A DNA stretch of 51,000 bases from a virus (Duplodnaviria; Caudoviricetes), in IMG/VR virus record IMGVR_UViG_3300020409_000025, positions 1 through 51,000 of that record, one strand, 5' to 3'. Position 1 is the first letter of the stretch. Each line of letters starts with the position of its first letter. A program made the position numbers and the translations under genes. Below, in pieces: positions 33,830 through 35,922 of this stretch. The notes beneath the pieces were generated by a model that saw only the letters and a list, made by a program, of their open reading frames with translations, had not been told where the DNA came from and searched no databases.

Positions 33830-34112
33830 TTAAAAATTGTTCAAAGTAAAAACCTTCCTCGCCATAAATATCTATGTAGAGTTTTGCCATTTTAAATAGC
33901 TCAGGCATTAAATCAAACACTAATCTACTGTTATTACTATCCAAAGCAACAACACTATTAAATGCTTGATTAACTGCTTTTGCTATTACTTCTGCTCTTG
34001 TACTAGCAACTCCTCTGTCGATTAAAAACATAGCTACTAAGCTGTAAGTCGTAGTCAAATCGACATGATAATCACTGTGATTAAGACCAGTTTGATACAT
34101 TTTTTTTCTCAT
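33816..34112 (-). CDS. Hypothetical protein
   Basis: Coupled ORF. Confidence 0.6.
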   Translation of the reverse strand: MRKKMYQTGLNHSDYHVDLTTTYSLVAMFLIDRGVASTRAEVIAKAVNQAFNSVVALDSNNSRLVFDLMPELFKMAKLYIDIYGEEGFYFEQFLNGGK

Positions 34113-34489
34113 TTATTTTCCTCTCTAATTTTTCTCATAGTATCTACGAGCATTCTTTTTAAAATTCTTTGAATTTCATTCCAAGTTTTCCAACCTTCAA
34201 CTCCATGACCAGAGCTGCTTATATAAGGATTATCTACCAACCACTCATCAGTATATTTATCTCTGATACCTATTTCAAATAAACCATAATCTCCACCATA
34301 AGAACCACCATGACAGATAACAGTCACCATTAAGTTATCAAAGTAAAACATATACCATATACCACCTTTAACTCTATCATTACATGAGAAATTTTCCTTG
34401 TGATTTATAGGTCTTATTTCATCATTAACGACATCAATATTAGCAACGATACTTTCATATCCTGCTATCTCTATGCTATTTATTTTCAT
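34109..34489 (-). CDS. Hypothetical protein (SYGGDYGLFEI motif)
   Basis: Motif common in phage early proteins; GGAG SD. Confidence 0.65.
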   Translation of the reverse strand: MKINSIEIAGYESIVANIDVVNDEIRPINHKENFSCNDRVKGGIWYMFYFDNLMVTVICHGGSYGGDYGLFEIGIRDKYTDEWLVDNPYISSSGHGVEGWKTWNEIQRILKRMLVDTMRKIREENK

Positions 34490-34515
34490 ATCTTCTCCAT
34501 TTAAGATTTTAAGTA

Positions 34516-34866
34516 AGCAGTTTTAAATCATGCTCAGGATTTGTTATAATCTATTAACTCCCTCCAATATTAACAGCGAGTTTCTCTCTGTGTTTTTTTA
34601 TCTTTAAAGGATGATTATAACTCTCCTCCAACACCTTTAAAGATATCAGAGCAGTTTTAAATCATGCTCAGGATTTATATTCTCTCGAGATAAGAGAAAT
34701 TAAATCTGCACCTATCCAGAGTAATTAAACTCTGAATAGGATTTAGGGGGAGTGCCTTTATTTTTTTAAGTGCTTCTCGGACATATACTTGCACTATGAA
34801 CGATTGATACTTTTAGTTTCCCAGCAATTTGTATCATGCTTTTTTAATTCTTTGTTCCCCGACTGC
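34516..34866 (-). ncRNA. Structured non-coding leader with two identical 27-nt pseudoknot modules and SD-like loops
   Basis: Lies directly downstream of promoter P2. AGCAGTTTTAAATCATGCTCAGGATTT is repeated exactly at 34516-34542 and 34650-34676, with several hairpins around it. Confidence 0.6.
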
Positions 34867-34872
34867 CCCAAT

Positions 34873-34915
34873 ATAGTACCCCAAGTCGCCCAAAAACGCA
34901 ATAGGTGTAAGACTA
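34873..34915 (-). promoter_or_regulatory. Early promoter P2 with upstream TAGTCTTACAC box
   Basis: TTGCGT-17-TACTAT. Confidence 0.7.
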
Positions 34916-34924
34916 ATATGGACT

Positions 34925-35389: not shown

Positions 35390-35433
35390 ACTTTAGCCCG
35401 ATTTCGCCCAAAAAGTCAAGAGGTGTAAGACTA
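35390..35433 (-). promoter_or_regulatory. Early promoter P1 with upstream TAGTCTTACAC box
   Basis: TTGACT-18-TAAAGT. Confidence 0.7.
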
Positions 35434-35527
35434 TAATAGCCCCCTCAACTTTACGCACACGCGATAAGTCGGCAAGATTTAAGTATTAGACTATAATTTT
35501 TCTAAAAAGTTCTGGGATTTATTAAGA

Positions 35528-35582: not shown

Positions 35583-35922
35583 GTACAGTAATTTTAGTAT
35601 GTACCTTTATAATTTATGTACCTTTTAAGACTATTATGTGTACCTTCTACACTCTTTGCCCTCAACTTTACGCAGACGGGGGGCGTTCTAGTATAGTAAT
35701 AAGTAGGTTTATATATCATCTTTGTGAGTAGAAAACAGACAAACTAAACAAGACTTTTTAAAAACCCTACGGGTTGTGTGTTTTATGCTTTGCTAGGGGC
35801 AAAGATTAACAAAGCTTTAGAAAAGCTTTACCAAAAGTGAGGGGTGCTAAAGCACTCTTGAAGTTTTGCCTCACACAAGGTTCGGCAGGTTATTAACAGT
35901 GGAGTAGGGTTTTTAAAAAAAA

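Follow-up and report, generated by a model that had tools for sequence, protein, structure and literature searches.

IMGVR_UViG_3300020409_000025 is a complete 51-kb virus record with a G+C content of approximately 32%, and the window analysed here is the whole 51,000-nucleotide stretch. Structural genes, including those for the terminase, portal and tail fibre, are on the plus strand, and a leftward operon runs on the minus strand from 34489 down to approximately 16364, with contents that include primase/helicase, DNA polymerase and ribonucleotide reductase genes (open reading frame list, PHROGs and Pfam). The first open reading frame of this operon (34109–34489, minus strand) codes for a 126-residue protein that has no family match in PHROGs or Pfam, and the non-coding stretch directly 5' of it contains both copies of a 27-nt repeat, at 34516–34542 and 34650–34676. 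A blastn search of the phage collection with 2.5 kb around the site gave no match.

The exact duplication reported in an earlier sequence-only reading of this DNA is readily recovered. A repeat search finds two copies that are 100% identical over 27 nt and spaced by 134 nt, and a pattern search allowing up to three mismatches returns exactly two matches in the 51,000 bases, with 0.00 expected and none of 100 shuffled sequences reaching two. With filters off, a covariance model of the element (R1) scores the gene-side (proximal) copy at 50.3 bits and the promoter-side (distal) copy at 48.7 bits, and gives no third copy in the window, the next-best place scoring 10.9 bits (E 0.15). The minus-strand transcript of each repeat forms a 28-nt H-type pseudoknot (the knot), composed of a 5-bp stem 1 (P1, AAAUC/GAUUU), a loop CU (L1), a 5-bp stem 2 (P2, GAGCA/UGCUY), a single U (L2), and an A-rich loop AAAAC (L3) that crosses stem 1. 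Position 28 is C in the distal knot (34649–34676, with C28 at 34649) and U in the proximal knot (34515–34542, with U28 at 34515), such that the outer pair of P2 is G-C in one and G-U in the other. Both the RNA sequence and this single flanking difference had been given correctly in the sequence-only reading.

The remaining features of the leader are also on the minus strand. A -10-like hexamer, CATAGT, at 34793–34798 is a putative leftward promoter, identified through its conservation in a sequence comparison of relatives; it was not listed by a promoter consensus scan. Downstream of it are an 11-bp leader hairpin (34711–34740; fold and alignment) that is found in the window and in the related locus L050 with a wobble-pair position differing, and is absent from most relatives, and a small hairpin UUCUCU/AGAGAA (34680–34698; predicted fold) that ends 3 nt before the distal knot and is kept in L050. 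The spacer cassette between the copies (34543–34648), delimited by alignment with L050 and comparison of ten relatives, holds a 12-bp hairpin (34599–34645, arms 34599–34610 and 34634–34645) with GGAGGAGAG in its loop, which is seen as an inverted repeat, in the fold and in relatives. One of its pairs is C-G in the window and U-G in L257 and L260, a change that fits an RNA hairpin on the minus strand. Two hairpins displaying Shine-Dalgarno (SD) sequences had been described between the copies; this one is clear, and the second is weak in the predicted fold. The proximal knot is followed by a conserved 25-nt leader (34487–34514) with GGAG at 34495–34498 and the ATG at 34487–34489, and the same leader is present in relatives.

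On the plus strand beyond the leader, a repeated motif occurs at 34879–34919, 35397–35437, 35483–35497 and 35626–35637, ending in TAAGACTATAAT or a close variant, and a 37-nt block that is 84% identical precedes a motif of this type twice. These repeats are candidate rightward promoters in a divergent control region.

Homologues bear out the H-type pseudoknot. The outer pairs of stem 1 covary in a set of 61 distinct cores, with a covariation score reached by none of 500 shuffles; the third pair is G-C in 27, A-U in 22, U-A in seven and C-G in two. One inner pair (C-G) is invariant and the other is either U-A or A-U, and the true register is 88.7% paired compared with 28–46% in slid controls. 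Stem 2 was preset by the search pattern in these cores, so less biased copies were collected with model R1, which was built with stem 1 only and does not encode stem 2 as pairs. From an R1 search of 50 phage records we took 60 diverged matches (55 distinct rows) scoring 23–43 bits, and in this set stem 2 is 98.5% paired. Pair 8–28 is G-C in 44, G-U in five, A-U in four and U-A in one; pair 9–27 is A-U in 52 and G-C in three; and pair 11–25 is C-G in 45 and U-G in five. Two-sided changes are also present at pairs 10–26 and 11–25, G10 changing to A together with C26 to U in L243, and C11 to U together with G25 to A in the window's relatives L259 and L264 and one copy in L257/L260. The whole structure is 94.4% paired, versus 79.6% in shuffled sequences (0 of 500 reach the observed value) and 29–39% in slid registers. 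The pseudoknot thus holds because both stems, including the loop-to-3' pairing, show compensatory changes and slid registers pair poorly.

We found ten relatives of the leader using a 26-nt piece of it. They share a block of approximately 110 nt containing the hexamer CATAGT, as in the window, or TATAGT, as in L050 and L256, followed by about 52 nt of leader, one knot, a conserved leader of 25–28 nt that contains GGAG, and the first gene's ATG. This cassette precedes at least six different first genes, and in L261 it precedes the same first gene as in the window, with a single knot. The layout of these relatives indicates that in the lineage of the window the knot is a 5'-leader element and not a gene-end element. 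L050 aligns as the window minus one knot and a 107-nt spacer; the spacer is likewise absent from single-knot L258, and is present with changes in L257 and L260, in both of which the second knot is decayed and a third is present. The decayed knot lies approximately 135 nt after the first, in the place of the window's intact proximal copy, and lacks the A-rich loop as well as part of stem 1. RNA-library contigs from marine samples (four small-share runs, kept as contigs and showing variant joints) contain two further variants that are broken exactly at knot borders, with one contig (X1) joining 34541 to 34744 and another (X4) departing before 34649. Because most relatives have single knots, and L050 lacks one knot and the spacer, the duplication is best explained by the acquisition of a cassette bounded by knots, the simplest route being recombination at the 27-mer. 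The idea of a duplicated module acting as a designed pair thus gives way to a lineage-specific cassette gain, and the window adds a lineage in which the knot is a leader element within a portable expression cassette that has recently been duplicated.

These breakpoints raise the question of whether the 27-mer is primarily a DNA recombination junction, a portable patch of homology that shuffles cassettes and for which the RNA fold is secondary. Relatives diverge exactly at the knot borders, additional knot-bounded cassettes are present in the window and in L257/L260, and the 27-mer is identical across otherwise unlike contigs. We nonetheless regard this as very improbable, in that the compensatory changes and G-U pairs reflect selection on an RNA fold rather than on DNA identity, and the element is also kept in bacterial chromosomes; a conserved patch would more plausibly give rise to cassette shuffling as a by-product. 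Promoter–stem-loop cassettes that shuffle genes are familiar from T4-type phages, and there too variable genes are flanked by a conserved regulatory patch at which mosaic breakpoints fall, although the T4-type cassettes consist of a promoter and a terminator hairpin, whereas the element described here is a covarying RNA pseudoknot that extends far beyond one phage group.

The exact 27-mer is present in 83 IMG/VR stretches, on contigs of 4 to 115 kb, and its copies are always intergenic, with a stop codon before them and tRNA genes, an SD and ATG, or a hammerhead-like RNA after them. The core pattern, with stem bases free, is found in 73 assembly stretches, bacterial and in a few cases archaeal, including Saccharibacteria, Aminicenantes, Thermodesulfobacteriota, Clostridia, Actinomycetota and Atribacterota. 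Some of these assemblies are probably phage contigs binned into metagenome-assembled genomes (MAGs), and other copies belong to chromosomes, with contigs reaching 3.3 Mb. R1 has 1–6 matches in every one of the 50 phage records searched, all preselected for the exact 27-mer, and the named phages S-RIM4, Javan271, S-SM2 and Latilactobacillus phage TMW 1.2272 P1 score 25.8–40.3 bits. In two temperate phages, Javan271 (a Streptococcus phage, L250) and TMW 1.2272 P1 (L251), the knot is directly before the scaffold and major capsid genes, which are late genes and heavily expressed.

No Rfam family matches the knot, whether riboswitches, ToxI, GP20-b or others. A scan of the window at gathering scores gave no matches, a scan of 34440–34800 at E ≤10 gave only noise, and a scan of 20 motif-bearing pieces at E ≤1 gave nothing on the motif, in agreement with the earlier statement that the element could be assigned to no named family. 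The literature searched holds no description of the knot in phages or bacteria; supplementary files on coremin, an RNA-virus motif discussed below, were outside the search and may list variants. The knot is a widespread family, absent from Rfam, that is placed by phages and bacteria at cistron boundaries.

Position preferences were counted with a relaxed pattern on all fetched loci, with instances made unique by their 25-nt flanks; since the instances were gathered through exact patterns, the model and the relaxed pattern, and many are related, the counts are descriptive and do not represent independent events. In 190 of 207 instances there is more cover by long open reading frames on the motif strand than on the opposite strand, and the knot's G-U pairs can pair on the motif strand alone. 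The sequence-only reading had named two outcomes that would speak against it, homologues without the loop-to-3' pairing and an orientation-independent DNA operator; neither describes this element, because the pairing is kept and the element is orientation-specific. The sharpest constraint across the family is on the upstream side, where an open reading frame of at least 40 codons ends 4–10 nt before stem 1 in 78 of 191 instances, compared with 29 of 955 random places in the same loci. The 40 nt upstream of the knot are also more structured than random (p 3.6e-9). Downstream, 47 of 265 instances have a same-strand tRNA gene that begins 3–14 nt past the knot (43 Asp, three Asn and one Met), mostly from one phage group, and a start codon is present at 20–35 nt in 48 of 215 instances versus 56 of 1075 random places. 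Over its first 40 nt the downstream side is no more folded than random (means of -4.80 and -4.71 kcal/mol, p 0.58, n=260), a partial test, as tRNAs are truncated at 40 nt; the distal copy in the window does have a hairpin after it.

Several local arrangements recur among these loci. A short hairpin ends directly before stem 1 in L196, L204, L208, L210, L211, L212, L213, L216, L220, L234, L240 and L245, in agreement with the upstream-structure signal, and this hairpin and the knot may stack on each other. In L046 (5303–5390), and with the same layout in L077, a type III hammerhead-like ribozyme, identified by eye and not called by an Rfam scan at gathering scores, directly follows the knot, with a predicted cut 6 nt past it. 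A DUF2800 RNA (RF02960) begins 4 nt after the knot in three loci of gut Clostridia type (L109, 912–1071; L146, 1464–1621; and L117, 1–137), and L087 and L140 look similar by eye. MAGs of anaerobic bacteria contain a tiny conserved open reading frame of 16–33 codons, with a pattern like M-K-R-F-x-V-P-R-x-A-H-C-x-E-G-C, in loci including L088, L091, L093, L096, L103, L115, L122, L123, L125, L134, L135, L137, L139, L142, L149, L153, L154 and others; in approximately 22 of the bacterial and archaeal core-pattern loci the knot contains its stop codon or directly follows it, and is in turn followed by a terminator. The tiny frame varies at the codon level in a way that suggests a coding sequence, and no NCBIfam family matches it.

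The closest published relative of the knot appears to be coremin (xrRNA-C and its Watson-Crick variant xrRNA-WCC), a likeness that we treat as resemblance and not as membership. Coremin is carried by beny-, cucumo- and other eukaryotic RNA viruses (Dilweg, Gultyaev and Olsthoorn 2019, extracts of PMC6546385; Dilweg et al. 2023, extracts of PMC10321173 and PMC10520033), and as described in extracts of PMC6546385 it consists of a 3–5-bp hairpin with a YGAD loop, a conserved 10-nt spacer in which A16–A20 are essential, and a second hairpin (hp2). It stalls purified Xrn1 in vitro without cofactors, and hp2 is needed for this resistance (extracts of PMC6546385); it also stalls ribosomes, blocks scanning ribosomes and promotes frameshifting in vitro, and xrRNA-WCC forms a canonical 3-bp stem 2 (extracts of PMC10321173).

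Both elements have a short hairpin, with U-A and C-G as the two pairs nearest the loop, a pyrimidine as the first loop base, and a spacer of about 10 nt composed of two or three variable bases and then AAACU, which is nearly invariant across knot members. In both the loop pairs with the end of the spacer to give an H-type knot, through Watson-Crick pairs in xrRNA-WCC, and both occur in untranslated regions, often a few bases past the last open reading frame. The first hairpin of coremin, with its required pairing over 3–5 bp, has its counterpart in the covarying stem 1, and the Watson-Crick loop–spacer stem in the five pairs of stem 2, with two-sided changes at 8–28, 9–27, 10–26 and 11–25. The coremin spacer ends in CUAC; a CUAC-like end is present in Javan271 and L259/L264, and UGCUC in most knot members. 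The differences are substantial. Coremin has a 4-nt YGAD or 6-nt YGNNAD loop, whereas the 8-nt loop of the knot, CUGAGCAU, fits in its first pyrimidine alone; coremin candidates with loops of up to eight bases exist, for which the extracts of PMC10520033 give no consensus. Stem 2 has five Watson-Crick pairs in the knot and three in the coremin variant, and hp2 directly follows the coremin spacer, whereas no regular hairpin follows the knot (p 0.58 for the 40-nt fold). The hosts also differ, being eukaryotic for coremin, while the knot is found in DNA phages and bacteria, which lack Xrn1; a word search of two coremin papers returned no mention of bacteria or phages.

Given the observed fold, family, strand specificity and preferred positions, the reading that we favour, tentatively and at a little below even confidence, is by analogy with coremin that the knot is a cis-acting roadblock that protects the operon message from 5'-end-dependent decay. 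The knot would be a compact, protein-independent mechanical barrier that enzymes moving along the RNA pass poorly, a role in line with the RNA-stabilising or processing cap offered as one option in the sequence-only reading. In the window's lineage it would act within the conserved promoter–leader–knot–SD cassette, approximately 45 nt from the putative transcript start and 25–28 nt before the ATG, and would shield the replication-operon message from RNase J-type 5'-to-3' digestion or RNase E scanning, with almost no naked RNA left between the knot and an initiating ribosome. The second copy, having presumably arrived with the 107-nt cassette via recombination at the knot sequence, would provide a second barrier. 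We choose a 5' shield for the window because the knot is part of the conserved promoter–leader–SD cassette, and we favour an intrinsic property of the RNA over a specific protein partner because of the wide host range and the cofactor-free action of coremin.

Several observations speak against the 5' shield: the putative promoter is missing from the consensus scan, the hairpin required for Xrn1 resistance of coremin is not general here, and the sharpest constraint in the family is upstream. An alternative interpretation, unlikely in our estimation yet a serious one, is that the knot is a 3'-end cap that blocks 3'-to-5' exonucleases on the upstream RNA once termination, or a cut by RNase P or a ribozyme, has taken place. 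Its role in the window would be to set where one or two small RNAs from the leader have their stable 3' end. The family is consistent with such a role in the open reading frames that end 4–10 nt before stem 1, the structured upstream 40 nt, the terminators after the knot in the bacterial tiny-frame loci, and the ribozymes of L046 and L077; and where a tRNA follows, RNase P cleavage would leave the knot on the upstream fragment, which fits a 3'-end cap better than a 5' shield. The window and its relatives point the other way. There is no credible open reading frame before the knot in the window or the ten relatives, L050 does not preserve the open frame that ends at the distal copy, its insertions and deletions not being multiples of three, and a conserved SD and ATG are at a fixed 25–28 nt after the knot; coremin, moreover, blocks a 5'-to-3' enzyme (extracts of PMC6546385). 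Across the family, the 3'-end cap fits the spacing, after stop codons and before RNase P or ribozyme sites, at least as well as the 5' shield.

The 5' shield and the 3'-end cap may be one 'bookend' function seen from two sides. In its broadest form, which we consider possible while doubting it, the knot would be the prokaryotic counterpart of viral exoribonuclease-resistant RNAs, a 28-nt protein-independent and universal bookend of which coremin is the eukaryotic-virus form, and it would stop RNase J, RNase E scanning and 3' exonucleases, and perhaps Rho or ribosomes, at cistron boundaries, thereby setting which pieces of a polycistronic message survive. If the roadblock reading is correct, bacteria and DNA phages would gain their first described class of exonuclease-resistant RNA. 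The knot would also rank among the smallest structured RNA motifs of comparable range, being carried by phages that infect cyanobacteria, lactic acid bacteria or streptococci and by chromosomes of Saccharibacteria and many anaerobes. The punctuation of long phage transcripts, as in the mRNA–knot–tRNA and leader–knot–gene layouts, would have an explanation, an element of plant-virus pathogenicity would be tied to an RNA device of much greater age, and synthetic messages could be stabilised or insulated with a part of only 28 nt.

Another reading is a translation device, in which the knot stops or positions ribosomes, either as a barrier to those that overrun a stop codon or go on scanning once they have terminated, or as a platform or standby site 5' of an initiating 30S subunit. 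The scanning block and frameshifting by coremin in vitro (extracts of PMC10321173) are in keeping with this, as are the excess of start codons 20–35 nt downstream and the 4–10 nt spacing after stop codons, which equals the spacer of frameshift knots (extracts of PMC10321173). The luteovirus frameshift knots of BWYV and PLRV are, like the element, compact H-type folds in which stem 1 has 5 bp, loop 1 is very short and the loop that crosses stem 1 is rich in A, and they lie 4–10 nt from the ribosomal A-site codon (extracts of PMC10321173). Here, by contrast, a stop codon or no open reading frame precedes the knot, the window copies have neither a slippery heptamer 5–9 nt upstream within an open reading frame nor an overlapping -1 frame, and no conserved open reading frame runs into either of them. 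Many knots, furthermore, precede tRNAs, DUF2800 RNA or terminators and not open reading frames. We thus consider a translation device improbable.

A further reading is a transcription device. The nascent knot might bind RNA polymerase in put-like processive antitermination, or block Rho translocation, and so allow transcription of the long operon to continue. It heads an 18-kb operon, is placed between the tiny open reading frame and an intrinsic terminator in bacterial loci, and is cis-acting and orientation-specific like published RNA antiterminators (extracts of PMC11658703). Known RNA antiterminators are much larger, however. The put element has two stem-loops. The canT antiterminator of Tn916 is a 452-nt region in which the extracts of PMC11658703 describe no knot of this kind. 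Most copies of the knot are at gene ends inside operons, and related knots occur in eukaryotic RNA viruses, which are never exposed to bacterial RNA polymerase. A transcription device is accordingly, in our judgement, distinctly improbable.

The sequence-only reading had pointed to type III toxin–antitoxin systems and had proposed an anti-defence decoy. ToxI is a head-to-tail array of small pseudoknotted RNA repeats beside the ToxN nuclease gene, and the element resembles it as a small pseudoknotted RNA repeat, with invariant loops and two copies in one leader, that can be phage-borne. The resemblance ends there, as the copies are 134 nt apart with an unrelated 107-nt spacer and form no tandem array, most relatives have one copy, and chromosomes carry single copies. 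No ToxN/AbiQ-type endoribonuclease or defence match was found with Pfam on 17 operon open reading frames or with PADLOC on nine neighbours, and ToxI-like membership is largely refuted. More broadly, a ToxI mimic, a protein sponge or a ligand-sensing riboswitch is exceedingly improbable: Rfam gives no riboswitch or ToxI match, the genes downstream are mutually unrelated, and the spread across phyla and the resemblance to RNA-virus elements argue against one protein partner. The absence of an Rfam match and the unrelated downstream genes are also the grounds on which a riboswitch was dropped on its own.

Four other readings were tried and dropped. A promoter specific to the phage, read by a single-subunit polymerase or with a sigma factor of phage origin, was considered for the exact conservation and the position before transcription units, and was rejected since both stems covary, G-U pairs are present, the conserved bases contain no sigma-70-like hexamers, and the element crosses phyla. 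A solitary CRISPR repeat acting as an RNA anti-CRISPR was set aside after a genome scan found no arrays, with 1–2 matches per locus at irregular spacing. Local alignment to three 16S genes, with 500 shuffles per gene, gave scores within the shuffled range (p 0.03–0.93), and an antisense or mimic of the 16S rRNA 5' end was dropped. A selenocysteine insertion or coding role of the loop UGA was likewise rejected: the stop codon of the tiny open reading frame is sometimes the loop UGA and sometimes the codon just before the knot, and Saccharibacteria read another frame.

A group of phages of approximately 100 kb has a further arrangement 20–60 nt after the knot, where TTATCCACA repeats, which we take to be DnaA-box-like, are present together with palindromes of the TGTGA-N6-TCACA type (L012, L014, L015, L040, L051, L189, L198, L203, L233, L243 and others). 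The areas concerned are possible origin or operator regions.
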